Origin: Geosiphon pyriformis uo1 | Taxonomy: Eukaryota > Fungi > Glomeromycota | DNA: 64,000 nt | NCBI GenBank assembly: GCA_016748015.1 | Contig: JAAOMT010000577.1 | Location: 350,489-414,488 of the forward strand | Reading direction: 5' to 3' | Part shown: positions 19,001 through 63,800 of the stretch, piece after piece | Layout of the letters: the number at the start of each line of letters is the position of its first letter | Position numbering within the stretch: the first letter of the stretch is position 1 | The notes under the pieces: generated by a model | What the model was told of the DNA's origin: nothing | Seen by the model: the letters and a program-made list of their open reading frames with translations, nothing else | Databases searched by the model: none | Position numbers and translations under genes: made by a program

Positions 19001-21137
19001 GTATATTATAGTCAAATTTATTCAGATAGAGTATTTAATAAGTTATTTATTTGTGTTCTAGCTTTTTTTGTTGCATAAGCAAATCAGAGCTTGATAATCT
19101 GTTATCACTAAGAATTTTACACCAAAAAATACTTACTCTAGTAGTTAGTAGATTATACTACTGCTAAGCATTCTTGTTAAATAATTAAGTAATTCTGTTC
19201 TCTAAAGAAAAAAATCTGTTAGCATAAATTATAATATGTTTTTTATTATCTTTATTTTTTAAAATAAGACTGCACCAAGTTTAAAACCAGATATATTAGT
19301 GTAGAAAATAAAAGATTGATACAAATTAAATTGCTTAAGAATTGGTTTAATAACTAGTTTTTTTTTTAAGATTTTAAAAGCTTTTTGTTAATGTGTGTTT
19401 TAATAATAATTAACAGTTTTTTTAAATAGCTGATTGAGAAGAAAGATAATTTTGGAGAATTTTTTAACAAACTTTTAATAATAAGATGCTAAACCAAGGA
19501 AAAATTATAGTTTATGAATATTTATTGATTGTTTAATGTTTTAAATTTTTTCAATCTTGACTGAGTCAAGGAAGATTTTATTTTTTGTAATAAAATGTCT
19601 AAGAAACTAGGTAAATTGATATTTAAATAAATTTGATTGAGTTAATCTTAAGACCAATATTTCTAAAAAGATTAAAAACTTTTTGTAAATATTCAAGATA
19701 ATTATTCAAAATTTTTAAGTATGTTATTATGTTATTTAAATAAACCAGAATAAAGTTTTTTTTTACTAATTCAAATACTTTGTCCATTAAACATTGAAAA
19801 ATAAGAAAAATATTGGTAAAACCAAAAGACATAGCTGTAAATTTATAGGTGCTATATTTAATAATAAAGACAGTTTTTTTTTGCTTTTTGGATTTATTTC
19901 TATTTGCCAGAATTTAGTAGTTAAATCAATAGTTGAAAAAAAAACAGCACTATTAAATTGATTCAATATTGTATCAATTTTGAGAAGTGAATATATGTTT
20001 TTTTTAGTAATAGTATTTAATTAATAATAGTTAATATCAAAGTATAGGATTCTATCTTTTTTGAATATTACTACAACTAGAAATGCTTATTTGTTCTTGG
20101 TTTTTTGTATAAATCTAAAGTTTTTTATCCAATTTATTTTTTTCTTGATGAGTTTATTATTATAACAATTAAATTAATAAGACTTTAAACAAATAAAGTA
20201 AGTTTTTCTAATAGCAATAGTGTATTATATTACATAAATATATCCAAAAATATTATTTTCTTTTAAGATAACTGAATTATTTTTAGCCAACAGATTTTCA
20301 ATGTCAATTTTTTTTTTTTAAGAGTTTTTTTTGTATTATTATTAATAATTGTATTTTTGGTAATTTATTTTTAAAAAACTTTGGTAATTTTTTTATTTTT
20401 TCTCAAGGTATCAATATAATTGGTTTCTAATTTTTGTAATAGATTAAACAAAACATTTATTCATTATTAAGAGAATACAATAGTTTATTGTATTAACATC
20501 AAACATAAAAACTATATTACCAATAACTGTATTTGGCTTTTTTGTTAAGTTTTTTATCAAAGATTTTTTTAAGAATATTATAATAGAGCCAACAAATCAG
20601 CTTGTCATTTATAATAATTTTTTTTGTTAGCTTTAATATTATCTAATAGCTTGCTATTGCTGGTGAAAGTGGTATAGACAAATTTAACAGTTTCTTTTTG
20701 TTTTTTTTGTTTTTTTTATTTATTGCTTTTTTTATCATCTAATTTATTTGATTGTTTTTTTTTTTGGTTCTGCTTGGATACTAGAAAAGTTGTCTAATAA
20801 TAACACTTAAGCACAATAAACTTTTCATAATATTTAATGATTTATTCATACAGCTTATAATCAAGTAAAACCTTGGCTTTTTTAAGCTACTTATTGCTAA
20901 CAATTATGGTTTATTCTTTTGCTTTAAGAACTTTTATGTTAGTTTCAATGCTAATGTTATTAATGTAAACAAAAACAGTTTTGATTATGCCCAGATCTTT
21001 TTTTTTGTTGCTATGTACATTGGTCATTAATTAAATAGAAAGTTTATCAATTTTTTTGTCAATTGCTTCAAAAAAGTATTTGACAATAATGTTAACAAAT
21101 GATTTATTGTTCAAGATCAAATTAATAAAATAACCAG
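16072..21137 (-). mobile_element. Family C Gypsy-like element, eroded: protease (~21120-20830), RT (~20200-19420), RNase H (~19350-18960), integrase (~18900-17600), 3' ORF region and 3' LTR; 5' part missing; left boundary approximate
   Basis: Minus-strand remnants ILNNKSFVNII (protease), MSFGFTN...VYLNNIITY (RT), FLVITDYQAL (RNase H), YIITVINYFTK and TNSLVECFNKTL (integrase). Purine tract followed by TATTA at 16949 marks the LTR start. Interrupted at 21138 by element D. Confidence 0.75.
16741..16860. repeat. 12-bp tandem repeat, 10 copies (consensus TAAGTCAATAAT), in the presumed U3 of the family C LTR
   Basis: Units readable directly: taagtcaataat, taagtcaataat, taatttaataat, tagatcaacaat, taagtcattgat and so on. 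A TATATAA lies just downstream on the minus strand. Confidence 0.8.
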
Positions 21138-21997
21138 TATTATTTATAGAATATAAAAAGTATATTAGCATATAAATTAGCCAATCAAAAGTAAACGTAA
21201 TAAATGTGAAATTCCAGAATTTTTCTTAAAGAAATTGCAGAATTCTAGGAATTTCAAAATTCTTGTATGAGAAATTACAGAATTCCAGAATTCCAGAATT
21301 TCTCTCAAAGAAATTGCAGGATTCTAAGAATTCCAGGATTCTTGGCATAAAAAATTAAAGAATTGAGAAATCTCAAATATGTATATATAGCAGTAATATT
21401 AGAAACAGAAAAAACAGATCTCTCTGTTTAGATTTAATCTAAGCAATCTTTCAAATTACAATAAATAATTATTTATTATCCCAAATTTACTCTTTACTAT
21501 TAACACTTTATATTGATAAAAATTTATATTTAACCACATTAGAACAATAGCTCTTAATCATAACTATTAATGAGATACTAACTTGTAATTGCCTTGGTTT
21601 ATTTTCTTTAAATCTTTTTTTTATCTCTTTTATTTTCTTTTCATTATTTTGTTGTGTTTACTAATTGATTAAAAATTAAGCACTGAATTATTGACATCAT
21701 GAATAGCCTGGTAAAAGACCCAGAAATAAAAGTAAAATTATATATACTATTAACAAATAGCTTACCAAAAGGGCATGACTGCCAGAATAAACCAGCCACC
21801 AAGCTAAAAAAAAAAATTGGGAAAACAACTTACCAATTATGACAACATTATTATTGAATCTCTGTTCATTATACAAAAGACTCAACCAAAACTTTTAGAT
21901 ACAAAGATCTTTAGATATTATCAGCCAATTTAGCAATTGAGCACCAAGTTATGAGTTTGTTATTTGATTTTGAAACCCCAAATAATCACTTGTAATA
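21138..21997 (+). repeat. 5' LTR of D (family A): CCAAT box, GGAATTCC-type repeat array, TATA
   Basis: TATTA...TAATA ends (decayed TGTTA/TAACA). AGCCAATC at ~21179, gaattcca-like units at ~21208-21375, TATATATAG at ~21382. Confidence 0.88.
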
Positions 21998-21999
21998 TT

Positions 22000-24900
22000 T
22001 GGTACTTCCTGTAAAGTATAATCCAACAGAGAACTGGCATCAACAGCATTCATCCGAAACAGTAGTAGAATTCAAAAAAACAGGAACAAACCATTTGGGA
22101 TTTGCAAAATCCTTATTTTAATATTATTACACTTATCTCAGATTAACAAATAATAGTTGGCCAATAGAATCAGCTTTTAATTGCTATGTCAATAAAAGAA
22201 TAGTATATTATTTGGGAGGCCAAGAAGATCCAAAATCCATCTTTAACAATTTTTTCAGTAAACTATTTCAAAGCACCACCCTTTTACAAAACTATTTATT
22301 TGCATCTCTAATCACAAAAATAAACAGGAAAATTGAAAAATACACCAAGCAAAGATTTTCTATTACTTTTGCTGACAAAAAAAAAGAAAGATTACAAACA
22401 CTAGCAGGAATTTCAAAGCAAATTCAACTACCCACGTAGAAAAAATAGAGATTTGATTCATCTGTTAATCTATTGTATTACTATATATCTGAAAACACTA
22501 TCAATATAACATCAACAGACACATTCACTACAAATGTAACAACACCATTAAACAGAATCCCATTCCAAAGTAAACAAAAGAAAACAGAATTATTAAGAAC
22601 ATATAGTAATTATTTTGAGAGATTTAAATTGTGATCTCTAACATTATCAGAAACTTGATTACCACCACCACAACCAGATTTTGAAGCCATAAGTCTTTGA
22701 GAAATAACCAACTCTGAGGAAGAAGAGAGTAGCAATCAAGAAATTAACAAGCAAAATCTAATCCTAAAAAATCTGAAAATTAAAACCCTGATTAATCAAA
22801 CTTCGAAGAATTAGAACAATCTAAATCCCAATATTATTAATTAACAAAACTTATCTCTGATAATTATAATCAATCCACCAGTCTTATCAATTGCCAAACA
22901 GCAACAGCAATCATAACAGCCACTTCAATCAGTATAACAACAGCAACAAATCATAGTACCAATAGCATATGTACCAATTGTAAAACTTGAAAAGTTTACC
23001 AACAAAGAAAATAATCCCCAAGCTTGGTTAAATAACATTGCCAAAGCCATAACTATTAATAATTGGGATGATGTCAAAGTCTTTCAAGCCATTTCATATT
23101 TTTTTCAAGATACTACTAATTTTTGATATCAGAGTTTGGCCCAGAAATCCCAAACATTTGATGCATTCAAGCTAGAATTTCTAAGATATTTTAACAATAA
23201 CAATAGTATTAATTGCTTGGCTAACATATTCACCACTATAAAACAAGAAGAAACAGAAGCAGTCACTACTTACTTGGAATGCTTCTACAGGAATCTGTGC
23301 TAGATCCAAGTCATTAATGCCAATTATTTTACAGTGGCTCAAATTCTAAATCAGTTTATTTGCAGATTACACAGCAGTATCTTTGTAATACATATGCTTA
23401 TTACATCCAACCACTTTTCAAGCTGTAGTTATAAATACCAGAGATTTTGAAGCAGCTGAAATCAAAGCCAACCATGCCCAAGCTGTAAATCTAGTGATGA
23501 ATGAATCATCTGAATTGGATTCTAAATTGAAACAATTCAGTAATTCAATCAATTAAAAACTAAAGAGATACTTATCTAACAACAATTAGGCAATTTATCA
23601 ATCTTTACAATAATACAATAATTAAGAAAACTCTAATTATTTCCAAAATTAACCATGTCTATTATTGTCAACAATGGCAACAGGAAACACATGTTTGTCA
23701 CTATTGTGGTAAACAAAGACACCTACAAATTGACTGCTGCCATCACTTAAATGATCAATAATTGGAAAGTCAATATTGAAACCCCAATTGCCAGTTTCAA
23801 ACTCTAAGTTATCAACTAAATCCAACATTATATCAACCAAATTACTTACCAATGACGCAGCAGCCCATTTATCAACCACCAATGTATCAGAATTCAGCAC
23901 CAATTATTTATTAACTGCAGCCACAAGTAATATATCAACCCCAACTAATTCAAACACCACCACAAAATTCAATTCTGATGTCACATGGAAACTAAAGACC
24001 AAGATTCATTCAACAAAACTGAAGATTGGCAATGGTTGTTCATCAACTGATTTTCAGTTTATCCACTCAATAATCAAAATTATGCCAGTGAAATTTAGGA
24101 ACCAGATACACCCAAAACCTGAATTCTCAGAACTATTTAAGTTTCCTAGTAACTTCAGAAGACACTTCATCCAACAAACTGAAACTCAACCAAAAACAAC
24201 CATTAATTAGCAACATACCTCCAGCCACTATTACTAACAATGAATCTCTTACAGCAATTTTTTCTTTTGAATTCGAGAAAACCACACCAATTTCATTATT
24301 TAGTGGAGCTGCTCTAGAAGAAAAACTCATCACTGCAATGTACACCAATGCCAAAATCAATGGACAGGTTATCAAGCTGATCCTAGACAGTGGTTCAGCA
24401 GGCAGCATCATCATATAACAACTTATGGACCAATTAGGTCACTAAGTTAATTACACTGCCAGCACCAGGATTATTATGGCTAATGGAACCACAAAGACTC
24501 CTATTAACAAGATTGATAACTTTTTCTTTAAAGTCAATGACATCATGATATCAATCAAAGTCTTAGTGATAGAAGCTACCCAATACCAAGCTTTTGTTAA
24601 TAACAACTGGCTAGTCAAACCCAATGCTGTACTCAACTGGACCATGCAAGAACTCCAACTTAACCAGAATGGTCAACACACACATGTACCAATCATGTGT
24701 GGCCATTTTAAAATGAACACTAAACCAGCACCACTTATAGAACTGGAAGAAGAAAAAAAAACCTATTTGGGAAGCCTATCAAGTCTCATAAACTAATACC
24801 AATCATAATGAACTGCCACTAATATTTTCTTGAGACAACAAGAGAAAAAGAAAAGAAGAAGACATATTTGAAGTAACTACTGTCACAGAAGAAATAACTA

Positions 24901-27900
24901 ATGGCTGGGAAAGAGAATACTTACATAAGACAATAAAAAAACCACCATATATACCCCTTAAATACAAAAACTATAAAAAAAAACTTTCCTCCATGGAAGC
25001 TTGGATTATACTCAACAAAGACTACTGAACAAAAACCCACTATTATTGCAAGCTGTGTTATAGAAAACACTATGACTACCCAAAAAAACAGAAAAAGTAG
25101 GACAACAAACCATGTCTTGCTTGTGGCAAACAGTTACTCGATGAAAAAATATGAAACAACATTTCCAGTTAAGAAAAAAAATGTAATGCTTCATGTCAAT
25201 ACACAATCTTTATAAGTGATTGGATAAGTCATAGAACATTTATAATGGCTGCCTAACACTGAGCAATCTCTTGCTTGAATGGCTACTCACATGACAAAAA
25301 TAAGATCTAATGAATGGCAAATGCCAAAGTTAAAGGCACTTTATCTTGTGAGATCTTAGAAATTAAAAATAATCCACTAAAACCAGTAAAAACGGTTCTT
25401 ATTCCAAATTCTGATGTTTTTCTTAACATTAAAACAGGCCCAGAGGAATTTATAAGTACTATCAGAACCTAACACTAACAAGAAAAAAGCAGAAACAATG
25501 GCTAAAAGAATTGAATATCAGATTATGCCAATATTTTTTAATTCTTAGTGATTTTGAATATTGTGATAATTGTGATCTTATTTACAATTCACTATTGCAC
25601 ATAATCTACATGATTCCTAAAGAGGAAAAACCAATTAGCAGCTATGCATCAGAAATAGAATCAACATTTAATTTTGATTTAAACTCTGACAATAAAAACA
25701 ACAGTTTCAGTTCCATTTAAAATGACAATAATAATTACAATAATTTGAATTCCAGTTCAAATCCAGAACAATATATTGTGCTTTCTGATCTCACCAAGGA
25801 GCAGAAGTTCAAATGGTTCAGTGATAACAATAAAGACATTATGCCAGAATGTGTACATAATACTAATGCCAGGTTTAATCTAAGATATCCAGGAAAAAAT
25901 ACCATCAAATTGGAACCACACTTGCATATCTGCATTAATCTTAAAATAGTACTGGATTCTGAGTAACAACAATGATTCAATTAGCATCAAGAAGTAGTTT
26001 AGCAAAAAAAAAAATCAATATTAAAGTAGGAATAATTGATGCAGAATATATAGAAAATATTATTGCAATGCTACAAAATAACTCAGAAAAGGCTTATATT
26101 ATAGAACCAAATAAAAAGATAGCATAGGCAATATTTCTGTCTTTGGTTAAAATAGCTCAATTAGTATTAGTAAGAAACAGAAAAAAATTAGGAATTACAG
26201 CTAGAGAGATTAATAAATTTGGATCCATGGATAGAATAGATGTGCCAGTTAATATGACAGAAGAAGAGATTGTTAACAAGAGAGAAATTATTTCTATTCT
26301 ATCATATGACCAGTACATGTTAGTCATAAAAAGAAAAGTGAAGGATCAAGCTCAGTTATTTGAAGTGAAAGCAACCATGTGTAAATCAAGAGAAATTGAA
26401 CTCACCAATCTTTACATACCAGCCAAAAGTCTTAAAAATATCAAAATTCTAATATATAATACTACTAAAAATGTTATCAAAATTCCAGAAGAAACTATTA
26501 TTAGATATTTAACTACTGAAGTTGAAAATTAACCACCAAATCACATTTTAGACTTTCTACAGCTATGCAAATATGTGGATATCACATTACAAACAATATA
26601 CAGATGAGAAGAATATTACTTGCTCCAACCAAAACAGCTAGAACAGATAAACTTAGGAAATTTAAATCCACTTTAACAAATGCAGATCAAGATGTTACTT
26701 AACAATTTCAATGACATTTTTGCCAGTGAAAATAAATTTGGCCATACCAATATCATTTAGCATCAAATCAAGACTGGCAATCTGATGCCAATAAAACAAC
26801 AAGCATACAGAGTATCATCAGTAAGCCATAAAATTATTCAACAAGAAATCAATTAGATGCTAAACAATAGACTAATTTAGTCATTAATGAATCTATAGTC
26901 ATTATCAGTGATACTAGTCCATAAGAAGAATAGGAAGATCTATTTTTGTGTAGACTATAGAAAACTCAATGATGTAACTCATGGAGACAGCTACCCCATT
27001 CTATGAATTCAAGAATTATTTGATGCTTTTGGTGGAAATAAATGGTTTTCAATATTGAATTTAGATAGTGGTTACTGGCAAGTAGTCATAAATTCAGCCA
27101 ACAAAAAAAAGACTGTATTTACAACAAGAGAAAGAAATTTTGAATTTGAAGTAATGTTATTTGGCTTAATGAACACTTCAGCCACATTCTAATAGCTTAT
27201 AGAAATCATCTATACTGGATTATTATGGAAGTTAGTAGTCATATACTTGGATAACACCAATGTGTTTTCAAAAACATTTGATGATCATCTGCATCATCTT
27301 TAATAAGTGTTCAAAAAACTCAGATAAGCAAGACTGAAATTGAATACAAACAAGTGCTTCTTTGGCAAAACAGAACTCAAGTTTTTAAGACATGTTATAA
27401 GCAAAGATAGCATTAAAACAAATTCAGACAAAATTAAAATAGTCAAAAACTTTTCAGTACCAACCAACTTGATAGAACTAAAAGCATTTTTGGGATTTGC
27501 TGATTATTATTGCCATTTTATTAAGAACTTTTTTAAACTGGTTCAGCTATTACACTAACTTCAAACCAAGAATGTGAAATATAAATGGACAGAAATCTAG
27601 TAGAAAGCTTTTAATACATTAAGAAGAAAGCTCATTCAAGCTTTAGTGTTGATTTATTCAGATTACAACAAACCATTCATCATCACCACCAATGCATTAG
27701 GCCAAGCATTGAGAGCAGTATTATCACAGAGAAAACTGAATAGAAAAGAACATTCAGTAGTATATACCAGCCAAAGTTTGAGTTTAGCAGAAAAAAACTA
27801 TAGAATACTAGTATTAAAACACTTAGCTATTTATTGGGCAGTCATAAAATAAAAAAAATACTTAAGCCAGAAGTTCAACATATATATTGATTACAAAGAA

Positions 27901-27974
27901 TTGACATTAATCCAAAAGCAAAATGATTGCTACACTCAATAAAAAATAGAACTTTCACTATTTAAATATACTAT
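22000..27974 (+). pseudogene. gag-pol: D polyprotein: leader domain, capsid, CCHC knuckle, protease, Cys-rich domain, dUTPase, RT, RNase H
   Basis: PIVKLEKF, CHYCGKQRHLQIDC, ILDSGSAGSII, FCVDYRKLN, YLDNTNVFSKTF, TTNALGQALRAVL. Knuckle and protease read in one frame. Confidence 0.88.
25841..26235 (+). pseudogene. dut: dUTPase domain of D
   Basis: ARFNLRYP (motif I), SRSSLA (II), GIIDAEY (III), IA*AIF (IV), R...FGSM (V). One frameshift. Confidence 0.85.
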
Positions 27975-30453
27975 TGTTACTCATAGAATATAAGAAGTAT
28001 ATTAGCATATAAATTAGCCAATCAGAAGTAGGCACAGTAGATGTGAAATTCCAGAATTCCTCTTAGAAAAATTGCAGGATTCCAAGAATTTTAGAATTCT
28101 TATACAAGGAATCACAGGATTCCAGAATTCCAGGATTTCTTTCAAAAAGAATTGCAAGATTTCAGGAATTCCAAAATTCCTGGTGTAAAGAATTGAGGAA
28201 TTGAAAAATCTTAATTATGTATATATAGTGATAGAATTAGAAACAGAAAAAACAGACTTTTCAGTTTAGATTTGATCTAAGCAATCTTTCACATCACAAA
28301 TATCAATAAATAATTATTTTCTATTTCAATCCACTTTCCACTATCAACACTTTATGTTGATAATAATTCATACTTAACCACACTGGAACAATAGCTCTTG
28401 ATTATGACTATTGACAGAATACTAACTTGAAAAATTGCCTTGGCTTATTTCTTTATTTTTTTTGTTTTCTTTTATTTTATTGTTATTTTTTTTGTGATTT
28501 ATTAAATTGATTAAGAATTAAGCACTGAATTACTGATGTCAAAGATTGTCTGGTAAAAGACCTTTGCAAATGGGTAGAGCATGTAAAAGAATTACAGATT
28601 ACTTATCAGAGAATTGCTGGCCACCAAGCTGAGAAAAAAATTGATGGAATTGCAATTCTGGAAGGCTACTAAAAACAACTATTGCATTTCTGTCAATTAT
28701 ACAAAGAACTCAAAAAAAAAAATCCTTAGATACAAACCACCTTCAGTAATTAACATTATTATATCAATTAAGCACCAAGTTATGAGTTTGTTATTTGCTT
28801 TGAGACCCCAAATAATTACTTGTAATATTTGGTGCTTTCTATAAGGTATAATTCTATAGAGAACCAGTACCAACAACAATTATCCAAAAGTGGCAGAATC
28901 AGAAATCATAGAAACCAACTATTTAGAATTCACCAAATCTTTGTTTCAATAGTACAGTCAACAATTAGGATTAAACAATAACCATTTCCTAGCAGAATCA
29001 GCCTTTAACTTTTATGTCAATAATAAAATTACAGACTGCTTAGAAGGAATAGTTAACATTGAATCCGCAAGGAAAAACTTCTATACAGAATTATTTCAAC
29101 ATACCAGCTTACCAAAAAACTACAGTTTCACACCAATTATTAGAGAAATCAATCAAACCATTGAAAGGTACACACAACAACAATTTCCCATCACCTATGC
29201 AGACAAAAGCAAAGAAAGATTGCAAACACCAGTAGTAACACCAAAAAAGATACAACCACCTACTTGGAAAAAAACCAGAGTTGAATCACCAACCAATCTA
29301 TCATATCATTGTATGCCAGGAAGTGCCATTAATATCTCCTCAGTAGATGTGTCCACATTAAACATAACACCAATCTTTGGATGATTTTTATTCCAAAGTA
29401 AACAAAGAAGAACAGATTTGTTAGGACCATATGGCAAATATTTTGAAAGATTTAAATTGCAATCACCAATGCCATCAGGATATCAATCACTACTATCTCA
29501 ATCCGATTTCAGAATTTCTGACCTGTGAGAAGTAACAGAATCAAAAAAAAAAAAAAAAGAGAATCAAGAATTTACTTACCAAAACCTGATCCCAGAAAAC
29601 TCAGAAGTTGAAACCCCAAATGTTCAAACTCCACAAAATCCAAATTTAGAACATCCAGAAATCAGAACTTCAAATATTCAACTACTGCCAAATCAAAACA
29701 ATCAAAACCCTGATTTAATTAATCAACAACACATACCTCCAAAAATTGTAATTAATCAACCAGTTGAACTGATTGGCCAGCCATTACAACAACTGAATCA
29801 GCAAATCCAGCTGCTGCCAGTACTACTTCAACAATCCCAGCAGCCACTTTAACAACTACAACAATCTCAAGCACCACTACAACAACCATTAAACTTAAAT
29901 CTAATAATCTATGCTCCAATTGCCAAACTCGAGAAATTCACCAGCAAAAAGAATGATGCCCAAGCATGGATCAATGATGTTGCAAAAGTCATCACTGCTA
30001 ATAATTGGGATGATGTCAGAGTACTTCAAATGATTCCATACATCTTGCCAATTCCTGGTATTAAAGCTTAATCAATAAACTAGTCAACTTTGACACATTC
30101 AAAACAGAGTTTTTGAAATACTTTAGCAACAATAATAGTATCAATTGCCTGGCCAACACTTTTACCATCATGAAACAAGAGAAAACTGAAACAGTCACTA
30201 CATACTTAGAATGCTTCTATAGAAATCTGTGCCAAATTTAGACAATTCAAGCTGACTATTTTATAGTGCCACAGATTCCAAATTGAAACAATTTAGTGAT
30301 TCAATCAATCAAAAATTAGAAGGATACTTAGCTAACAATCATGCAATTTATTAGCCACCACAATAACACAATAATATAAGAAATACAAATCATTTCCAAA
30401 ATCAGTTATGTCTATTATTATCATCAAGTCAGCCGTGGCAGCCTGAAACACAT
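27975..30453 (+). mobile_element. Family A element E: 5' LTR (27975-28827), PBS (28830-28837) and gag; truncated by element B
   Basis: LTR starts TGTTACTCATAG and ends TAATA, followed by TT-TGGTGCTT. Gag YAPIAKLEKF...FSNNNSINCLANTF. Ends at PETH, just before the knuckle. Confidence 0.9.
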
Positions 30454-31460
30454 TGTTACCAGATGAAATTAGAGATATTATTTAGCATGAAATTATCTTT
30501 ATAATTTCTATCATTAATTAGCATATATTATCATTTCAAATTATTACTTATTACATTAGCAAAATGTCCGAAATTATCATTTAATTAATAACCCAATTTG
30601 TACATAACACAAATGTAACCTAATTGCAATAATCAATCATATAATACCCCAAAATATGTAACATTCAAAAGTTCGCCAAAATTTGTAGAAATTTGCTGAA
30701 ATAATTGATAGTTCACCAAAATATCTAATAGTTCACCAAAATATCTAATAGTTCGCAGAAATAACTTGTAGTTTGCCAAAATGTATCTTTAGTTTAGTGA
30801 AATTGTAGAAAAGAGCAAAGTTCAAGTTTATGGAATAGTGTTACAACAAGTTGTATAAAAAAAAAGCTTTTCTCTTCAAGAAAATATATCTTACTTTAGA
30901 TTTATTATTTAGAACTATTCTTACACACACAAAAAGAAATAAAATATCAAATAATTCGAAAAACCAATTTTTTTAAAATATTGCACTTGGAAAATCTCCA
31001 AAAAACCCAACTAACATTTTAAAATTAATTAGCTACCAATTTCAGTAAACTGTTAGTGACTCTAGACCTGGATAGAAAATCTTTCCCTTGACAAAATTCT
31101 ATTTCTTTTATATTTCTTTTATTTTTTTTCTTTTATTTTCTTATTATAATCATTAGGGTAGCCTACAGACAAGATTCTTGTAGAAGAATTGACTTTCACA
31201 GCAAAGTAACTACACATTTTTAATGAGCTTCCAGACAAGCAATTCCTGGGAAAGAGTTGACATTTACTACAATGTAACTACATGAAGCAACTGGCATGGA
31301 ATTGGCCATTCCACTTATAAGCCCAGCAGTTCAAATTATAGGAGATAATTTAAAGATAAAATTCAGTTATTGGAGGTTCAAACACTTCCCATAGTCGTAA
31401 ATTAACAGCACTACAACAAACATACGAAAGCTAAGAAGAGACCAAAAACCTTCAGTAACA
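30454..31460 (+). repeat. 5' LTR of B
   Basis: TGTTAC...GTAACA, 1007 bp. ~20-bp tandem units at ~30670-30810, one more unit than in the 3' LTR. TATAAAA at ~30854. Confidence 0.95.
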
Positions 31461-31462
31461 TT

Positions 31463-52919: not shown

Positions 52920-54799
52920 CTTTTATTATATTTTTGTTTTTAACTGTTTAGATTTTGTTATATTTTTGGGTTGAAATGTTCTTAGATTTGTTTCATTCTC
53001 AACAAACTGTTGGCATTTTTATTTTTTTTTCCTTTTTTGTAATGTACTGTATATTTAAATGGTGAAAGTTCTATCTTCTATTTGGCATGATAATAATCTT
53101 TAAATTTTTGCTTTTGAATTGCAGTCAATCTTTTATGATTAGTATAAACATCAAACTTTTGACTCAAGTATTCTTTCTATTTGATAATAGCCCAATAGAT
53201 AACTAAGTATTCTAGCACTGGAGTTCTATAGTTTTTTTCAGCTGGACTTAAGCTTTTGCTGGTATAAGCTACTGGATTTTTTCGTCCATCCAATTTTTTT
53301 TGAGATAGTACAGCTTCTAATGCTTGACCAAATGCTTTAGTGATAATAATAAATGGTTTGCTGTGGTTTGAATAAATTAATACTGGGGCTTGAATAAGTT
53401 TTCTTCTAAGTGTGTCAAAAATTTTTTGTTGAGTTTCTATCTATTTGTATTTGGTGTTCTTTGTTTGGAGTTGATGTAATAGTTAAGCTATTTTGGAAAA
53501 GTCTTTAATAAAGCAGTGGTAGTATCCAGCAAATTCCAAGAATATTCTTAATTCTGTGAGATTATTTGGTACTGGAAAGTTCTTAACAATCTTGATCTTA
53601 TTTGGATCTGTTTTGATATCATCTTTTCTCACTACATGTCCCAAAAACTTGAGTTCTGTTTTGCCAAAGAAGCATTTGTTTGCATTTAATTTCAATTCTG
53701 CTCATCTGAGTCTTTCAAATACTTGTTGTAGATAATGTAGATGATTATCAAATGTCTTGGAGAACACATTGGTATCATCCAGATATACAACTACTGATTT
53801 CTATAGCAGTCTAATATAGACAATTTCCATGAGTCATTGAAATGTGGCTGGAGTATTTATTAAGCCAAATGGCATAACTTCAAATTTGAAATTTTTTTTT
53901 CAAGTTGTAAAAGCCGTTTTCTTCTTGTCTTCTGGTTTCATGGCTACTTGCCAATAACCACTGTCTAAGTCTAAAGTCAAGAACCATTTCTTTCCTCCAA
54001 AAACATTGAAAAGTTTTTAGATCTTTAGAATTGGATAGTTATCTTCTTTGGTTACTCTATTAAGTTTCTGGTAATCTACACAAAAGCAAATTTTTCCATT
54101 TTTTTTACAGACTAATATTACTGGTAATAATCATGGGCTCATTAATGGCTGAATTAGTCTATTGTTAAGCATCCAATTGATTTCTTAATGAATGATCTCA
54201 TGGCTGGCTGGTAGTACTCTGTATGCTTTTTGTTTAATTGACATTGCATCTCCAGTTTTAATCTGATGTTAAATAATATCAGTTCTGTCAAATTTGTTCT
54301 CACTGGCAAAGATGTCATTGAAATTATTAAGTAACATTTTAAGCTGCATATATTGTAATGAGTCTAGATTTCTCAAGTTCATCTGTTCCAATTGTTCTGA
54401 TTGGAGCAAATAACATTCTTCTCATTTGTATATTGTTTGAGATATAATATCTATATATCTGCACAGTTATGAAAAGTTTGAAATGAGGTTTGGTGATTTT
54501 TCTTTAATTTCAGTGGTTAAATATTCAATGGTAGTTCTTTCTGGTATCTTGATGATATTTCTTGTGTTGTTGTAAATAGAAATTTTGATATGACTGTGGT
54601 TCTTGGCTGGTATATATAAATTAACTAATCTAATCTCTCCTAATTCACAAAGGGTTGCTTCTGCCTTAAAAATCTGAATCTAACTTTTTTCTCTATGGCT
54701 ACCATATACTGATCATATGGTGGAATGAAAATTAATTGACAGGTGAAGATAATTTCTCTCTTGTCAATAATTTTTTCTTCTATCATATTAACTGATACA

Positions 54800-55200
54800 T
54801 TTATTCTACTCATTAATCCAAATTCCTATATTCCTCTAGCTGTAATCTCTAATTTTTTCTTGTTTTCCACTGATTCTAATTGAGCTATTTTCATCAAAGA
54901 CAGAAATATTGCCTGTGCTATCTTTTCATTTGGCTCTATAATATAGGTCTTTTTTAAATTATTTTGTAGTATTGCAATAATATTTCCTAGATATTCTGCA
55001 TTAATTATTCTTTCTCTGATGTTGATTCCCTTTTTCACTAAGCTACTTTTAGATGCTAGTTGAACTATTGTTGTTGTTAGAATTTCCAGTGCTACTTTGA
55101 GATTAATGCAGATACATGAATATGATTCCAATTTGATGGCATCTTTTCTGAGATATCTTAGATCAAACCTTGTATTAGTATTATGTACTTGTTTTGACAT
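54800..55200 (-). pseudogene. dut: dUTPase domain of G
   Basis: TRFDLRY, ASKSSLVK, IINAEYLGNI, EKIAQAIF, RGI*EFG. Confidence 0.85.
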
Positions 55201-58200
55201 GATACTTTTATTATTATTATTGAACCATTTAAGTTCTTGTTTCTTGATGAAGTCAGAAAGTACAATGTATTGTTTGGGATTTGAATCTGAGTTGGAATCA
55301 TCATAATTATTATTGCCATTTCAGATAAAGCTGGAACTATTGTTATCATCATCATTATTGTCAAAGTTTAAATTGGGATTAAATGTCAATTTTGATTTTA
55401 ATGCACAGCTGTTGATTGGTTCTTTCTTTTCAGGGATTGTGTAGATCATGCATGGTGATGGATTGTAAATGAGGTTATACTTATTACAATATTGAAAGTC
55501 ATATAAGATCAAACAGTGGTCACATAGTTGGGTGTTTATTTTTTTTAAACATTGCTCTTGTTTTTCTCTGGTAAGTGTTAGTCATTGATAGTGCTTATAA
55601 AATTCTTTGAAATCATTTTCAATGTTGCCAAAGACATCAAATGTTTGGACATATTTGGGTTCAGGGAGTAATAAGGGGTTGTTTTTGATTTTTAGTAGTT
55701 CACTGATTATTGTGCTTTCTGTTTTTGTACTTGCCATTCTCCAGATTTCATGTTTATCATAAAAATATCCTTTCAGTCATCACAATGCTCTTTTCCAGAC
55801 ATCATCAATTGGGGTTTTTTTACATACTCAGTCATTGATTAGGATCATATATTGGCATGTTTTGTCACATGTTTCTTCACACTCAGGAATGTTATTCCAC
55901 ATTTCTTTGTCAGACAAAATTGTTTTACATGTTAGACAGAGTTTGTTGTCCTATTTTTCTTGTCTCTTTGGTTTTCCAAACCATTCCAGGATGCATGGGT
56001 GGCAATAAAACTTTGTTACAGTAGGGTATTTTTTATCATCACTCCAACATGTGTTCATTAATGACAATTTCTTATCACAATTGATACATACTAGTTTTAG
56101 TCAGTGATAGTTAGACTGGTGTGATAGAAAGTAAGTATATGGTGTATAAGTAGAGGTAGTGACTGGTGCTAATTCTTTTTTTTTCTCCTTTCTTTTTTCT
56201 TTTTCTTCTCAAGTCTAAATTAGTGGCCACTCACTTTGGTCATTACTATTTCAATAACTTTGGTTGGTTTCCCAGGTAAATTCTTCTTCTCTTTTGTCAT
56301 CTCATGATAGTATTAGCAGTAATTTGTTGTGGTTGGCATTGGCCCAGGAAACTTGGTATGCTTCTTAGGTAGATTTTTTTTCATCATCATCGAACTTGAT
56401 GAGTAGTGCTGGCACATTATTACTGGATTTGAAATGACCATACATTGTTGGTACTTGTGTGTATTGTCTATTCTGGCTGAGTTGCAATTCCTAGGTAGTC
56501 TAGTCAAGAATTGCATTTGTTTTGGACAGCCAATCATTATTAATGAGTGCTTAGTATTGAGTGGCTTCTATAACTAATACTTTGATTAGTATAATGATGT
56601 TATTGACTTTTATAGGAAAGTCATCAATCTCATCAGTTGGAGTTTTGGTTACTCCATTGGCTATTATAATTTAGGTGCTGGCAACACAATCAACTTGGCA
56701 ACTTAATTGGTCCATGAGTTGTCATGTAATAATGTTGTCTGCTGAACCACTATCTAGAATTAATTTTATGACCTGACCATCAACTTTAACATTAATGTAC
56801 ATAGCAGTAATGGGTTTTTCTTTGAATACAGCTTCATTGAACAATGGTATTTGTAATGGTTCCTCAAATTTAAATGGGAAAATTGCTGCTAGTAATTCAT
56901 TGTTGGTTACAGTGGCTGAAGGTATATTGCTGATAAGTAATTTGTTTTGGTTGGATTCTTGGTTGTTGGATAAGATGTCTTCTGGGGTAACCAGGAGACT
57001 TAAATAGTGTTAAAAATTTGGGTTTTGAGTGTATCTAGTCTCCAAATTCTGAGAGCATATTTTTGATTGTTGGATGAAAAAGCTGGAAATCAGTTAATGA
57101 ACAATTATTACCAATCTCCAGTTTTGTTGTGTTATTCTTGGCCTTTGTGTTTTGGTTTGAGGTAAGTTTTAAAACAGTATTTGAATTTGTTGAGGCTAGT
57201 ATATTACTTGTGGCTGTGGCTAATAAATGATGGGTGTTGCTGGCTGATAAATTGGAGCTTGATATACTAATAAATTGGCTGTTGTGTCATTTGGATGTAA
57301 TAAGATAAGTATTAATCTTGATTTGGGTATTGATTCAGAGTTTGAAATCTGTAATTGGGGTTTTGATATTGATTTCCCAATTGTGGGTTATTATTATAAG
57401 AATGGCAGTTAATTCTGAAATGGTCTTGTTTATCACAATTATGACAAATATATGTCTCTTGCTGCCATGGCTGATTGGATGATAATGAAAAATGCAAGTG
57501 ATTTTGAGAGCAATTTATGTTTCCAGAATTATTGTGTCATTAAAATGGCTGATAAATTGCATAATTGTCAGCTAAATATCCTTCTAATTTCTGATTAATT
57601 GAATTATTGAGTTGTTTCAATTTGGAATCCAAGTTAGATAGTCTATTTATGATTAGGTTTATGGCTTGGACATAGTTAGTTTCTAATTCAGTGGCTTTAA
57701 AATCTCTAGCATTGGTAACTGTGGCTTGTAAGTTAGCTGAATGTAGTAAATGTATGCATTGCAGAATACTGCTACATAATTCACGAATAAATTGATTTAG
57801 AATTTGAGCCACTGTAAAATAATTGGTGTTAATTGCTTGTATCTGGTACAGATTCCTATAGAAGTGTTTCAAGTAAGTGGTAACAGCTTCAGTTTCCCCT
57901 TTTTTTATGGTGGTGAAGATGTTAGTTAACTGGTTGATACTGTTATTGTTGCTGAAGTATTACAGAAATTCAAACTTGAAGATATTGAAATCTTGGGGTT
58001 TGTTGACCAAGCTTTAATACTAAGAGTCGGCAGTATCCTGGAGAAAATAAGGAATTGCTTGTATGGCTTTGGCATTATTTTATCTATTGGCTGCAATGGT
58101 TTTTTCCACATCATTTAGTCACACTTGGGCATCATTCTCTTCACCAGTAAATTTTTTGAGTTTTGCTATTGGGATGTAGACTATTGAATCCAAGTTTGGT

Positions 58201-59256
58201 TGTGGTGGTTATTGAAAGAGTAATTGCTGAGATGGTATTGGCAGCTGTTGAAGTTGTTCAGCAATCAGATCAATTGGTTGTTGATTAATAATAATTTCTG
58301 AAGGTAAGTTTTGCTGATTAATTAACTTGAGATTTGAATTGTTCAGAGTTTGCTGGGTTTGAATATTTGGAGTTTCAACTTCTGGATTTTCTAGAATTGG
58401 GTTTTGGTAATTAAATTCCTGACCCTCTTTTTTTTTTTTCTTCTGAAATTATTATTTCTCAAGAACTTGTGATTCCAAAGTCTGATAGAGGTGGTGGTGA
58501 TTAAAATCCTGATGGTATTAGCAATCATGATTTAAATCTTTCAAAGTAATTGCCATAAGTTCTCAATAATTCTGCTTTTTTTTGTTTACTTTGAAATGGA
58601 AGTCATCTGAATGTTAATGTTGTGTTTGATGTAAATATGCCTGCTGATGAGATGTTGATAGCACTTTCAGATATATAGTGATATAATAAATTGGTTGAAG
58701 ATTCTACTCTTGTTTTCTTTTAAATAGATGGTTGTATTCTTTGTGGTGTTACTTCTGGTGTTTGTGGTTTTTCTTTGTCTTTGTTTGTATAGGTAATTGG
58801 ATATCTTTGTTGAGTGTGATGTTTAATTTCTTTATTGATTTTGGTGAAAATTGCTGTGAAATTATAATTTGCTGGTAGACTGGTATTTTGAATTAATTTG
58901 TTGTAGAAATTTTTTCTTGCTGAGTCAGTTTCTACTGATACTCCTAACAAATATGAAATTTTCTTGTTAATGTAGAAATTGAAGGCTAATTCTATTAATA
59001 AGTAGTTGTTGGTTAATCCCAAGTGTTGACAATAGTATTGAAATAAAGATTTGGCAAATTCTAAATGGTTTGTCCTTATTCTTTCTGGTTTTGCCACTTT
59101 TAGATGATTGTTTGTTAGTGCTAATTTTCTGTAGGATTATACTTTACAAAGAGCACCAAATATTACAGATGATTATTTGGAGTCTCAAAGCAAATAACAA
59201 ACCTGTAACTTGGTGTTCAAGTGTTATGACAATTGATAATATCTGAAAGTGTTGTA

Positions 59257-59374
59257 ACCTAAAGATTTTGGTTATCTGAAAGTTTGATTATCTGAAGGTT
59301 TTGGTTATCTGAAGGTTTTGGTTATTTGAAGGTTTTGGTTATCTGAAGATTTTGGTTATCTGAAGATTTTGGTT
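59257..59374. repeat. 17-bp tandem repeat (ATCTGAAGGTTTTGGTT, 7 copies) in the G 5' LTR
   Basis: Seven units counted directly; the second is 16 bp. The G 3' LTR has four units at 50057-50123. Confidence 0.9.
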
Positions 59375-59672
59375 GAGTTTTTTATATAATAGACAGTGAT
59401 TTAATTAATAGTTTTATCTGTAGCTTTCCAAAACTGCAGTTTTATCAATTTCTTTTTTAGCATGATGATCAGTAATTCTTCTGATAAAATATCCTCAATT
59501 TTGAGTGTTTACCTTTATCCTGGGTCTTTTACCAGTACTATATCTTAATGTTAATACCTTTACATGTAAATTTTTTTAATTAAGTTAGCAAATAACAATG
59601 AAAATAAAGCAAAAAAAAGAAATAAAAAATAAGTCAAGGTGATTTACACATTAGTATCCCATCAATAGCCAT

Positions 59673-60436
59673 TGTTATAGATGATTATCTGGAGTCTCAA
59701 AGCAAATAACAAACCCATAACTTGGTGCTCAATTAATATAATAATGTTGGTTTCTGAAAGTTGTTTGTATCTGAAAGTTTTGGTTGAGTTCTTTGTATAA
59801 TGTACAGAGATTCAATTGTTGTTTTCTCAGTAGCCTTCTGAAATTACAATTCCATCAAATTTTTTTCTCAGTGTGGTGGCTGGTAATTTGACAAAGATGC
59901 TCTTCTAATAAGCTATCCTTAAATTCTCAATGTTATACTTTTTCTTTGGGGTTTTTTACCAAACTACTCTTGATGTTAATAATTTAGTGCTTTTTCTCTT
60001 TAATTAATTAATAAAACAAAAGAAATAATAAAACAAAATAAAAGAAAATAAAAAAATAAGCCAAGACAATAAATGTTAGTATTTCATCAATAGCCATAAT
60101 CAAGAGCTATTGTTTCAGTGTAGTTATGTATCAATTACTATTAACATAAAGTATTGATAGTGGAAAATAGATTTGAGATATTGAATAATTATTTATTAAT
60201 ATTTTTGATGTGGAAGGTTGTTTAGATTAAATCTAAACTGAGAGGTCTGTCTTTTTTTCTTCTACTGTTACCACTATATATACATAATTGATATTCTACA
60301 AGATTGCTCACATTTCCGAGCAATGTGCCATAATTTCTGACATTGTTCTACATTGCTAAGCAATATGTTTACATGCTAACTACTACTCTCTTATTGGTCT
60401 ACTATTTTCTATATCTGTTTTTTTTTATGAGTAACA
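59673..60436 (-). mobile_element. Solo LTR, family A variant with a different U3, inserted in the G 5' LTR
   Basis: TGTTA/TAACA ends; 4-bp TSD CCAT (59669-59672) / CTAT (60437-60440). The host LTR reads continuously across it (atcaatagccat-aatcaagagc). Confidence 0.9.
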
Positions 60437-60812
60437 CTATAATCAAGAGCTATTGTTCTAGTGTGGTTAAGTATTAATTATTATCAACATGAAATGTTAA
60501 TAGTAAAGAATAGGTTGAAATAGTGAATAATTATTTATTAATATTTGTGTGTAGAAAAGTTGTTTAGATCAAATCTAAACTGAGAGGTCTGTCTTTTCTA
60601 TTTCTAATGCTACTATTATATATACATAATTGAGATTTCTCAATTTCTCAATTTTTCACACCAGAAATCTTGCAATTTTTTATATAAGAATCCTGAAATT
60701 CCTGAAATTCTGCAATTCCTCTGAGAAAAATCCTGGAATTCCACATTTACTATGACTACTTCTGATTAACTAATTTATATGCTAATATATTTCTTATATT
60801 CTATGAGTAATA

Positions 60813-63800
60813 CTGTTTAACAATAAACTTTTAGTAATAATACTAAGTTTGTATGCTAATATTTTTGTTAGTGTATATTTTAATTAGGTCTGTAAAGTAA
60901 ATTTATGCATTACTAAAGCAGTTAATTTAAGTTTTTATATAGTATTAAGTGGTAGTTTTAATAAAAATGTAATAAAAAAAAATGTGAATTTGAAGAAATA
61001 TTTTAATTTAGATTTGTACAATTCTCTTTTAAATAATTTTGTTGTCAAACTTTTGATATGAAGTAATTTAAAAAGTGTAAAAAAGACTATAAATTATATT
61101 TTTATTAATAAATATTTTTTGATGGCTGTAGTTAATTAAGAAATTAATAATATATTTGATTTTTTTAATATTAATTATATGTCTGTTTTAATTTTTTTCA
61201 GCTTAAGTGGTTTTTTAAATAAATATTAGAATAAAATTTGAAAATATATTATTAAAAATTAATAAAAGTTTAAGATTAAAAATATAAATTATGTCAAATG
61301 AACATGCTTTGAAAAAGTTTTTTTTGTTAAGTTTTTAATAATAATAAATAAATTTGTAAACATAAAAATTTTTGATAATTTGGATGTTATATAGAAAATA
61401 TTGAAAGAAATAATGATAGATTTAGCTAATTTAATATTTTTTAAACATTGATTTAGCAAGTTTAAGTGCTTAAAAAACAAATAATCTTTAAAGTTTTTTG
61501 GATTAAAATTGTTAATTGCTAAAATTATAAAGAAATTAAGCTTGAACAGCAAATTTAAATGTAATTATTTTATTAAAAAATAGTCTACTATTAATAATAA
61601 AGTCTTTTAAAGTTAGAAATATGTTTTGAAATAGTGCAAAGTTAATAAATATTATTAACTACTTGTTAATAATCAAAAAAAAATATAAAAAATTCAAATA
61701 TTATAAGTTAAAAATAACCAAAAATATAGATGTTAAAAAATAATTAAGAAATAAATAAAAAATTTTAGTTCTAATAAAGGAAGCATAATAAAAAGTATTT
61801 TGAAATAATAATTCTAAAATATTTAGTAATTAAGAAAAAATTGGTTCTAAAATCAAATCAAATAAAATTTAAAGTTAATAAAATTATAATAAGTTAGATA
61901 AAAAAGCAAAAAATATTTGCAATACTGTTTAATTTGTGGTCTTACTAATATATACTATTAAATTATATAAAAAAATGTTTTTTTTGCTATAATAAATAAG
62001 ATTTGAATAAATAAATTGGTTTTAGTTATTGATAATCTGTTTAATAACAAAATTGTTAGTTTATTTAAAATATTTTTTAAAATGCCAATTTCTTGGTTTT
62101 GAAAAATACTTTGATCCAATTTCTTGTGTTTGTTATTGGTTTAATAATAAAAAATGCTTTAAAAAAAAGCCAAGAGTTTTGATTAATTCTGCAAAATATG
62201 TGCAAAACATATAATTCAGTTAATTAGCATTTTTTAGAAGCTAGTTTGAAATATATTAAAATATATAATAAGTTTATTAAGTTTTTTAAAAATATATACA
62301 TAAACAAAATTAACAAAATAATGACTAATTTTGGTTTTTAAATAATCACAAAGTATAAAATAGTTTTAATCAAAGTAAAATATTTTCTCTGTTTTTTTGG
62401 AAGATTTTTTATGATCTATTATTATATAAAATAATAAGACATAAACATTTATGTAAATATAAAATCAACACTAATTTTATGGCAAAAATAAATAAAGTAG
62501 AAATTAATAGAAAAAATTTACTTTTTTTATAATTAGTGCTTTTATTAATAATATAATTTAGATAAAAAACAATCAAACTTTAACACAATATATTTTGGAT
62601 ATTTTTAGTAAGTTTTTTAGGATTAATAACATTTTTATTAACAATAACAAAACAATAGTAATTTTTATTAATTAGAAAATTGTAAATACTTTTTTGTATA
62701 TTAGTAATTAGTCTATTTTTATTCTCAAATATAGTAAATCTTATAGATATTTGGAATTTTTTGTCAACAGAAAATATGTTTAAGTTAAGTCTTGTCAAAG
62801 CATATTTAAATATTAAGTTTTTTTTGAATTTGGTTTTTAAAAAAGTATTATTAAATAAACAGTTTTTTATTTGGTCTTAGCAATTTTTTAACTTATAATA
62901 AATTATTAAACACAATTTAATTTTATATTTAAAAGTATATATCAAAAATAAAATATTATGATTAGAAAAAAGTTTAGATTTAAAACCAATTTGCTTAGAA
63001 ATTTTTCTAATTAAACTTTATACTATTTATTTCTGTATAAGTTAAAGTTTTTTAAACAAATACAAGCAAAAAGCAAAATAGCTTTAGTAATTTGGTTCTC
63101 TAATACAACTAAAATCTTTGGCCAATTATTTAATACTACTTTTTGGATTTACAAGTTTTAGAATAAATATTTATAAACTTATTATAATACTCAATTAAGC
63201 TAAAAATTAGTTCTGTGAATAATTATTTAATAAACATTGTAAAAATTTTTTTGAATAATCAAATTTCTCTAACTAATAACTTGCCCAACATATTTTATAG
63301 TTTTTACTACATTTTAATGTCCAAGATTTTGAAATATTCTTATTATTTTAAGATAATTTATTCTTTGAAACATTTTAATATTGTCTTTAAAAACAAGTAA
63401 TTAGATAAACACAAATTATTTGTAAATTAAAAAATTTTTTATTATTAAAAAAAATTAAGTTCTAAAAACTCAATACTATTATAACTTAAAAAAGTTTCAG
63501 TTTTTATAAATAATTTCTTACTAAATCTAATAAAATTGTTCTTATTTTTGGTTGGTTAAATTTTTTGTGTTTAAAAACTTTTTGGACATTTAAAAATATT
63601 TGCATAAATTGTAAACAGATATTTTTAATGTTTATACTAATAATTTTTTGAATTATTTAAGTATTGTAAAAGTGGCTAATAAAATAATAGCTTATTTTTC
63701 TAATAGTAAAATGAATATAGATATAAAAGTATATGAACTGTTGTTTTTAATGATATTAAAATTACAGATGATTATCTTAGCATTAAAATGTATTCTTTTT

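Follow-up and report, generated by a model that had tools for sequence, protein, structure and literature searches.

Stand-alone integrase genes and 4-bp target sites of nested Gypsy retrotransposons in Geosiphon pyriformis, compared with Ginger1 transposons

Ty3/Gypsy retrotransposons usually produce their integrase within the pol polyprotein. Ginger1 DNA transposons, reported from animals only, carry a Gypsy-like integrase and TGTNR ends, and their target site duplications (TSDs) are CCGG in 75% and CCGT/ACGG in 24% of cases (PMC2836005), in agreement with what the initial annotation of the locus described here had stated. Bao, Kapitonov, and Jurka (2010) placed Ginger1 beside the YPYY-type Gypsy integrases without exclusive support, and pointed out that TGTNR ends are common to most Gypsy elements, so that we do not treat these ends as diagnostic; their work did not settle whether a particular Gypsy lineage yielded Ginger1, nor by what route an integrase domain released by the protease could become a free transposase (PMC2836005). 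With respect to targets, PMC4422553 describes a pyrimidine-purine (YR) center as preferred by 4-bp integrases (PFV, gammaretroviruses), as the initial annotation had also stated, and PMC3276498 gives the 412 and Idefix clades of Drosophila the motif ATAT. In the literature outside subscription journals and Repbase, we found no description of Glomeromycota Gypsy elements with a split integrase, nor of the TSD that they make.

We analyzed a window of 64,000 nt from Geosiphon pyriformis uo1 (GCA_016748015.1, contig JAAOMT010000577.1, positions 350,489 to 414,488, forward strand), whose elements are nested, decayed Gypsy LTR retrotransposons and not Ginger1 transposons. Pfam, tblastn, and six-frame reading located gag, protease (PR), dUTPase, reverse transcriptase (RT), and RNase H (RH) in them; the gene order is gag-PR-RT-RH-IN, as in Ty3/Gypsy, TG...CA LTRs occur together with a primer-binding site and a polypurine tract, and Ty3 Gag-Pol is the top match among sequences of solved structure (E 1e-48). 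The LTRs are direct repeats of 830 to 1000 bp with an inverted part of only ~6 bp at their ends, and the least decayed ends read TGTTA, which conforms to TGTNR. Ginger1, in contrast, has a single transposase without reverse transcriptase, and terminal inverted repeats of 40 to 270 bp, whereas the elements of the window lack long ones. They also differ from it in their fungal host and in a target wider than CCGG, CCGT, or ACGG.

The nest begins with the heavily decayed element G (16960 to 21133, minus strand; tblastn and six-frame reading), in which PR-RT-RH and a stop precede the integrase (~17900 to 18873) and which is the target of element B. The latter has a family-1 5' LTR (21138 to 21997) with the primer-binding site next to it and a gag-PR-dUTPase-RT-RH region interrupted at the end of RH (21998 to 27970), and is followed by the family-1 5' LTR of element C (27975 to 28827), all on the plus strand. 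Element D, also on the plus strand, comprises a family-2 5' LTR (30454 to 31460), gag, dUTPase, RT, and RNase H with a stop codon at the end (31461 to 37128; Pfam), a separate integrase ORF (37175 to 38572; Pfam and alignment), and a 3' LTR (39370 to 40355) that is 90% identical to the 5' LTR; since the flank of the 3' LTR differs from that of the 5' LTR (site S3 below), D is a recombinant or has had one flank deleted. On the minus strand, a truncated family-1 LTR (40360 to 41061) sits in the integrase of element E, whose internal region (41066 to 49168) contains a solo family-2 LTR (46225 to 47284) and whose 5' LTR lies at 49169 to 50002. Element F (50007 to 60812, minus strand) consists of a 3' LTR remnant (50007 to 50839), an internal region, and a 5' LTR (59161 to 60812). 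A search for tRNA genes within the window found none, and an ORF at 39015 had no Pfam match. Near 5030 to 5970 lies a further decayed solo LTR with ends too degraded to read, which was left out of the site count.

The suggestion of a free-standing integrase held up well, as a stop after RH and a separate ATG for the integrase are found in D, E, and F and in 52/52 related loci having RH upstream. In D, this ATG lies 46 nt past the RH stop in a different frame; in E the RH stop ends at 41863 and the integrase ATG is at 41820, and in F the corresponding positions are 52982 and 52919. Judged by their reading frames, these integrases would therefore not be made in the usual way, inside a pol polyprotein. 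The D integrase has a YPYY-type N terminus, H2C2, rve, and an SH3-like end, with seven stops within the stretch read, and alignments and Pfam recognize the YPYY, H2C2, DDE, and GPY/F motifs, some residues of which have decayed in the window's copies. OTU, Ulp1, or PHD domains, in which these elements again differ from Ginger1, are absent from the D integrase (Pfam) and from the precomputed domains of the best 120 matches. Two proteins within or beside the split family, P0132 and P0142, are true in-frame RH-IN fusions, so that not every member of the clade has the split. Four other fused gene models from Rhizophagus and Cetraspora (P0122, P0123, P0124, and P0128) were discounted as evidence of fusion because the RH end or the IN start is missing at the junctions inspected, as a predicted splice would give, although they may be truly spliced.

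Split-integrase Gypsy families of the same architecture and integrase clade occur in Rhizophagus and soil metagenomes (P0009, P0067, P0075; L001 to L080), where databases name them only as integrase-domain proteins. These relatives have TGTNR LTR ends, a primer-binding site, and a polypurine tract, and differ from the window's elements in being mostly intact, in being less depleted of CpG, and in giving no dUTPase match in a domain search. Many contain a small third ORF, which had no Pfam match in the nine relatives searched. A scan of viral contigs found no relative, sequencing runs X2 and X3 contained almost nothing of the element, and proteins were sampled by three word-index searches with limits on protein length. 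The described YPYY-type Gypsy elements (Athila/Tat, Cer1, Gypsy-1-I_RO, Gypsy-6-I_HM, Gypsy-15-I_NV, and DGLT-A1) likewise carry YPYY upstream of the zinc finger and stand next to Ginger1, these named elements being absent from the trees built here; the split integrase, the dUTPase that the copies in the window carry between PR and RT, and the third ORF of many relatives set the present lineage apart from them. Athila/Tat make 5-bp duplications.

Eleven target-side junctions, representing nine insertion sites, were counted in the window, and the 4-mers listed in the initial annotation, from 21134 to 60813, are all present and adjoin LTR ends. The only clear 4-bp duplication is S8 (59669 to 60440, minus strand), the CCAT/CTAT pair around a solo LTR at 59673 to 60436; three of its four bases agree, and empty paralogues restore the site exactly. 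The solo LTR in element E, S6, is flanked by TAAG (46221) and TTGG (47285), alike at 2/4 bases, and the remaining seven sites each retain one flank, given here on the plus strand. S1 (CCAG, 21134 to 21137) covers a third codon position and a Gly codon in the protease of G and is without a paralogue, S2 (CTAT, 27971 to 27974) has two paralogues that both read CAGT (Thr-Val codons), and S3 (ACAT, 30450 to 30453) lies in the zinc-knuckle region of the C gag, with ACAT, GTGT, and ATAT in paralogues. S4 (CTAT, 40356 to 40359) is within a family-1 LTR of which two same-type paralogues read CTGT; S5 (CTGG, 41062 to 41065) falls in Asn-Gln codons on the minus strand, and its paralogue carries an indel. 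S7 (CTAT, 50003 to 50006) is in the 3' LTR of F, with CTGT, CCAT, TTGT, and three instances of TCAT in paralogues. Finally, S9 (CTGT, 60813 to 60816) lies in the endonuclease region of a LINE-like sequence, where it coincides with Leu-Phe codons, and a paralogue with TTGT at the same codons bears out the proposal that it was an original Leu codon.

The palindromic M-Y-R-K pattern that had been proposed for these flanks fits 8/9 sites and 9/11 junctions; the exception, missing from the earlier list, is S6, which fails on both sides. A central YR is present at 10/11 junctions, against background frequencies in the 21- to 61-kb interval of 23% for YR and 5.3% for MYRK. With a binomial p of 6e-10, or ~2e-8 after correction for 36 palindromic two-letter patterns, the target preference is real. 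With nine sites and one to seven paralogues per site, statistical power is low. The first base is C on the plus strand in 7/8 of the matching sites. Among the six best-supported rows of contig flanks from one sequencing run, ATAT precedes one LTR end in 62 contigs (agreement, 0.42), and at the other end 15 contigs have AC next to a shared AT, giving ACAT. The contigs are mixed and the letters are those of the majority, base -1 being constrained by the method; the commonest first base in the rows listed is A, not C. As the metagenome loci have mostly collapsed to polypurine tract-LTR-primer-binding site, genomic flanks came from only 2/80, the intact relatives L045 (GTAG) and L071 (CCAG). A palindromic motif with a YR center is shared with Drosophila 412/mdg1 and Idefix and with PFV and gammaretroviruses, and ATAT is itself compatible with M-Y-R-K; those systems (PMC3276498, PMC4422553) differ in their fused polyprotein and their hosts, and the fly motifs in lacking G/C-rich outer bases. 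In our own searches, 412/mdg1 names appeared only as automatic labels, on spider and pseudoscorpion proteins.

We consider it probable that the split-integrase Gypsy elements insert at palindromic 4-bp M-Y-R-K targets through an inherited YPYY-group integrase that does not require CpG. The initial annotation had regarded the sites as decayed CCGG/CCGT with an ancestral CpG core. The CA/TG variation on which it relied is indeed seen among uninterrupted paralogues of S7 and S3, and the ancestor of S7 was probably CCGT, while that of S3 probably had a CpG core with A or G as first base; the GTGT paralogue of S3, the element at 47.4 kb, begins with G and thus points to a GCGT or ACGT ancestor, outside the Ginger1 set. 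That the integrase truly targets CpG (CCGG, CCGT, or ACGT), with every site a product of decay, would suit a window whose CpG observed/expected ratio is 0.11, the five further sites still compatible with CCGG/CCGT (S1, S2, S4, S5, and the TTGG flank of S6), and the mostly C third-last base of the 15 contigs among the best-supported rows. We nevertheless regard it as improbable. The CpG signature is confined to 2/6 paralogue-bearing sites (S3 and S7), a fraction enriched over all positions (3.1%; p 0.013) and not in excess of YR (11.6%) or MYRK (15%) positions (p 0.15 to 0.22). S8, with A at position 3 in 7/7 empty paralogues (CCAT and TCAT three times each and TTAT), and S9 were never CpG, the cores of the single clear TSD pair are CA and TA rather than CA and TG, and GTAG and CCAG flank relatives with intact ORFs; like the contig ATAT and ACAT and like S3, S8, and S9, these depart from the CCGG, CCGT, or ACGG of Ginger1. 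In LTR pairs, moreover, C/T differences affect 23% to 29% of C followed by A, C, or T and 10/12 in CG, and hence CTAT can come from CTGT or CCAT without CpG. Chance combined with a motif picked after looking is far less credible still: the nine sites tested also supplied the motif, one of them fails, and most keep a single flank, yet the corrected p stands at ~2e-8 and the YR core recurs in an independent contig class and in both relatives.

The elements had further been seen as a link between LTR retrotransposons and Ginger1, and their integrase is close to Ginger1-type transposases; as a specific link this lineage fares less well, since the trees set it apart with the YPYY-type LTR integrases. 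The rows of the trees (108, 48, and 36) were hand-picked from a collection of 362 proteins plus 80 loci, with Ginger1 labels given by domains and clustering in a set without a GIN1 or Hydra reference. IS481 matches in plasmids, covering about one-third of the protein at <40% identity, were dropped as an outgroup; the trees are therefore unrooted, and the 100/100 for the YPYY group plus Ginger1 means that the remaining Gypsy integrases in the sample all fall to one side, nothing more. In the best topology of all three, Ginger1-type integrases fall outside the YPYY-type LTR group (supports 87; 93/87; 97/83), in which split and fused members stand together; the parting branch is short (0.13 to 0.14), and the Ginger1-type clade (100/99) excludes the window's integrase. 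Of the outcome that the initial annotation had named as refuting its reading, one half is seen, in that the integrase travels with its RT: in an RT tree of 37 rows, approximately the same members group together (85/91). The other half is not, as the integrase is not far from Ginger1. Grouping the Ginger1-type sequences with five fused Integrase_p58_C-type integrases was rejected (AU p 0.0006). The split lineage as the source or exclusive sister of Ginger1, which would have shed gag-pol, acquired inverted ends and afterward an OTU or Ulp1 domain, and kept a 4-bp YR target that sharpened to CCGG in animals, is possible, though in our estimation unlikely. AU tests do not reject the sister grouping (p 0.22 and 0.08), and with a Ginger1-type query, in a search without proteins of >1350 aa, split-family integrases are the next-best matches, stand-alone proteins of ~425 aa scoring from 318 bits downward among Ulp1/OTU/PHD-bearing transposases and the first clearly fused nonfamily polyprotein 243 bits. 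Mean identity to Ginger1-type sequences is 36.0% for the split family and 30.7% and 30.9% for fused YPYY-type and other fused integrases; the split family is, however, short-branched and closer to everything, which inflates similarity. Its start Met column recurs in 6/11 Ginger1-type N termini, but also in 2/11 fused proteins, and stand-alone integrases would start at this domain edge anyway. No inverted repeat of at least 30 bp surrounds the integrase in 80 related loci, many of them short, and Ginger1 has been reported from animals only (PMC2836005).

The likeness to Ginger1 (a stand-alone integrase-type ORF, the YPYY, H2C2, DDE, and GPY/F motifs, a 4-bp duplication, TGTNR ends, a YR center, and a neighboring tree branch) thus probably reflects shared ancestry in the YPYY group and a common YR rule rather than a Ginger1 signature. 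Under the M-Y-R-K reading, the integrase would be translated from an ATG of its own, with no need for release by the protease, and would have been inherited with its RT inside a group of Gypsy integrases already known to lie near Ginger1. The preference of a symmetric integrase complex is likely for a pyrimidine-purine step that bends easily at the center, and not for CpG itself; CG, CA, TG, and TA cores would then all be accepted, and CpG targets would be a minority that decayed later, along with many C and G bases elsewhere.

The target-site pattern is by itself ordinary. More speculatively, and against our own expectation, a Glomeromycota Gypsy lineage with a stand-alone YPYY integrase, a Ginger1-like start Met, and 4-bp YR TSDs might be a living intermediate to Ginger1, and thence to vertebrate GIN1/GIN2, via loss of gag-pol. 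With the integrase already a separate gene in a retrotransposon, the obstacle of protease release would be gone, and the lineage is a concrete candidate, and a possible source judged from sequence comparison, for Ginger1-type transposons. Whether or not that link exists, a pol gene that is split throughout a widespread fungal lineage has consequences for annotation: its integrases may be mistaken for DNA transposases, and gene predictors seem to join them to RH by splicing.

Our analysis established the LTR element anatomy, split ORF, 4-bp target duplication, and enrichment for the palindromic target pattern M-Y-R-K of the nested elements in the window, which are Gypsy elements and not Ginger1. 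The window (28% GC, with CpG observed at 0.11 of expectation) is occupied by LTR retrotransposons, nested and decayed, that match gag, protease, dUTPase, reverse transcriptase (RT), and integrase, and by a LINE-like element; an LTR content of 41.2% has been given for G. pyriformis (PMC11952901). In both of the window's LTR families, protease and RT are separated by the dUTPase (34725 to 35291, 43769 to 44671, and 54826 to 55320), which had no match in 80 related metagenome loci. All nine insertions between 21134 and 60816 sit within other mobile elements, with three hitting family-1 LTRs (40356, 50003, and 59669). The LTRs of element D (30454 to 40355) are 90% alike and its flanks unlike, the left being gag of element C and the right an LTR interior, as a result of recombination or deletion between nested copies. 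A 170-bp RT piece of the oldest element (4852 to 5021) is oriented opposite to the rest when compared with paralogues, owing to a local inversion beside a decayed solo LTR. The LINE-like element has two plus-strand copies (6116 to 16960 and 60813 to 64000); its ORF1, with a weak RRM match (E 0.0035), is followed by frames that by eye resemble endonuclease, RT, and RNase H, and the coding part of the first copy, at 38% GC, is richer than its surroundings.

The free-standing integrase reported in the initial annotation is real: in elements D, E, and F, a stop codon ends RNase H, and an ATG follows 46, 42, and 62 nt later, respectively, while the more decayed element G has kept the stop and the integrase and lost the ATG. 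In a search open to proteins of 256 to 816 aa, the best 120 matches of D's integrase measured 360 to 453 aa, and 46 aligned matches shared a start column with at least 90% conservation. Its sole close named match was a G. pyriformis protein (74% identity, 35% of the query covered), the other named matches being from Rhizophagus, which points to a host in Glomeromycota. Fifty-two of the 80 metagenome loci extend upstream to RNase H, and in every one of these the stop is present and the integrase has its own ATG, the spacers ranging from -20 to 506 nt; the other 28 had no upstream RNase H match, mostly because the loci are short. Since PPT-LTR-PBS was seen in many loci, these are LTR elements. 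Two relatives, P0132 and P0142, are fused in frame. No description of the split-integrase lineage was found in the open-access literature.

Several features of the relatives deserve mention. Two Rhizophagus clarus gene models, P0122 and P0124, join RNase H to the integrase with sequence lost from the end of the first and the beginning of the second, and these junctions are likely false introns across the split. A P-loop/thymidylate-kinase-like domain lies upstream of the integrase in the related gene models P0127 and P0130, and pol continues for 219 to 314 aa beyond RNase H before its stop in L012, L030, L036, L041, L051, L054, L065, L069, and L072. After the integrase, many relatives carry a third ORF of about 130 to 230 aa (L002:2284-2712, L008:6267-6857, L018:4878-5498, and L030:6633-7061), and D has an ORF at 39015 to 39401 that ends at the 3' LTR; neither had a match in Pfam. 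Loci L008, L018, L020, L030, and L054 (7.2 to 8.0 kb) have terminal direct repeats, or one LTR between PPT and PBS, reflecting assembly collapse or one-LTR circles.

The 4-mers that had been quoted next to the LTR ends are all correct, and mapping of the ends yielded 11 target-side junctions at nine insertion sites. Of these, nine junctions and eight sites fit M-Y-R-K, the exception being the solo LTR at 46225 to 47284 (flanks TAAG and TTGG). Against a background frequency of 5.3%, the chance of this fit is 6e-10, or 2e-8 once choice of the motif after the fact is allowed for. A clear duplication is present at one site (CCAT/CTAT, 59669/60437), and empty paralogues fix its length at 4 bp. A central YR (pyrimidine-purine) step is a known preference of PFV integration, discussed as general among retroviruses (PMC4422553), and M-Y-R-K also accommodates ATAT, the motif of the 412 and Idefix clades in Drosophila (PMC3276498). 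The pattern therefore extends beyond Ginger1, for which CCGG (75%) and CCGT/ACGG (24%) sites have been described (PMC2836005).

Could these sites nevertheless be decayed CCGG/CCGT, as had been proposed? When each was compared with uninterrupted paralogues, CpG ancestry found support at 50003, where CA and TG both occur, so that the family ancestor can reasonably be taken to have had CCGT. The paralogues of 30450 (ACAT, GTGT, and ATAT) likewise point to a CpG core, but as GCGT or ACGT, outside the Ginger1 set. At 59669/60437, position 3 is A in seven of seven paralogues, and CTGT at 60813 is, as suspected, an original Leu codon, belonging to a Leu-Phe codon pair with TTGT in a paralogue. The CpG signature (CA and TG among paralogues) was found at two of the six sites for which the retrotransposon alignments include paralogues. 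In the LTR alignment, its frequency is 3.1% over all positions, 11.6% at YR, and 15% at MYRK (p 0.013, 0.15, and 0.22 for the respective comparisons with two of six). With no excess over the YR or MYRK background, the excess over all positions is the amount expected from YR preference. Sister LTRs differ at 23 to 29% of C in CA, CC, and CT contexts and at 10 of 12 in CG; transitions are common outside CpG too. Transposons of R. irregularis are described as carrying CG methylation (PMC8647823).

Flanks outside the window weakly favor YR preference as well. Contigs of one public run were compared with two LTR ends, taking majority letters of the best six rows at each end. At 49169, 62 contigs had foreign flanks, with majority ends ATAT (agreement 0.42; the method rules out A at -1). 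Fifteen contigs at 27975 had the window's AT, preceded by majority A and C, giving ACAT; another 39 break exactly at this end, and their sequence is the polypurine tract. A thus comes first at both ends, in place of the C or T expected of Ginger1-like sites. Genomic flank was available in only two of the 80 loci (GTAG and CCAG), with YR in both and CG in neither. The target pattern, although real, is ordinary and cannot be called a Ginger1 signature.

The integrase itself is a different matter. In a search for longer relatives, Glomeromycota gene models were followed mostly by fused polyproteins and by two integrase-only proteins, one from oyster. When the oyster protein was the query, the top matches were integrases bearing Ulp1, OTU, or PHD domains, given as the defining architecture of Ginger1 (PMC2836005); among proteins of up to 1350 aa, split-family integrases ranked among them from 318 bits, and the first clearly fused polyprotein outside the family scored 243 bits. 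Mean identity to the Ginger1-type set, labeled by domains and clustering rather than by checked inverted repeats, was higher for the split family (36.0%) than for either fused set (31% in both). The start-Met column of the split family is also the start Met in six of 11 Ginger1-type N termini (two being near copies), and Met in two of 11 fused proteins. Near full-length Gypsy-type integrases (25 to 33% identity) also turned up in plasmid records filed under Wolbachia and Bacillus (NZ_CP087956.1, NZ_CP065945.1, and NZ_CP065944.1), possibly as host retrotransposon contamination.

Unrooted maximum-likelihood integrase trees of 48 and 36 rows have three branches: the Ginger1-type proteins (100/99); the LTR integrases of YPYY type, whether split or fused (93/87 with 48 rows and 97/83 with 36); and the remaining sampled Gypsy integrases (100/100). 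This repeats, with a new lineage added, the placement by Bao et al., in which Ginger1 adjoins YPYY-type Gypsy integrases with no exclusive sister (PMC2836005). Trees forced to unite Ginger1 with the split family were worse by 7.1 and by 5.4 log units and were not rejected by the AU test (p 0.22 and 0.08); grouping Ginger1 with five other fused integrases was ruled out (AU p 0.0006). In the RT tree, the split family joins six fused YPYY-type rows (85/91), with P0132 and P0142 outside, a pattern suggestive of joint inheritance of integrase and RT rather than capture of the integrase. The suggested link between LTR retrotransposons and Ginger1 thus survives in the proximity of the split integrase to Ginger1-type proteins but not as an exclusive sister relationship in the best trees.

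By analogy with retroviral integrases, a two-fold symmetric complex, its integrase probably translated from its own ATG, would cut 4 bp apart, bend the target, and favor a central YR; in a CpG-poor genome, such a complex would mostly use TA, CA, and TG. That the widespread split-integrase lineage was the source of Ginger1 is rather improbable on present evidence, and it is the best structural candidate we found. It is this lineage, as a candidate source of Ginger1, that is worth following.
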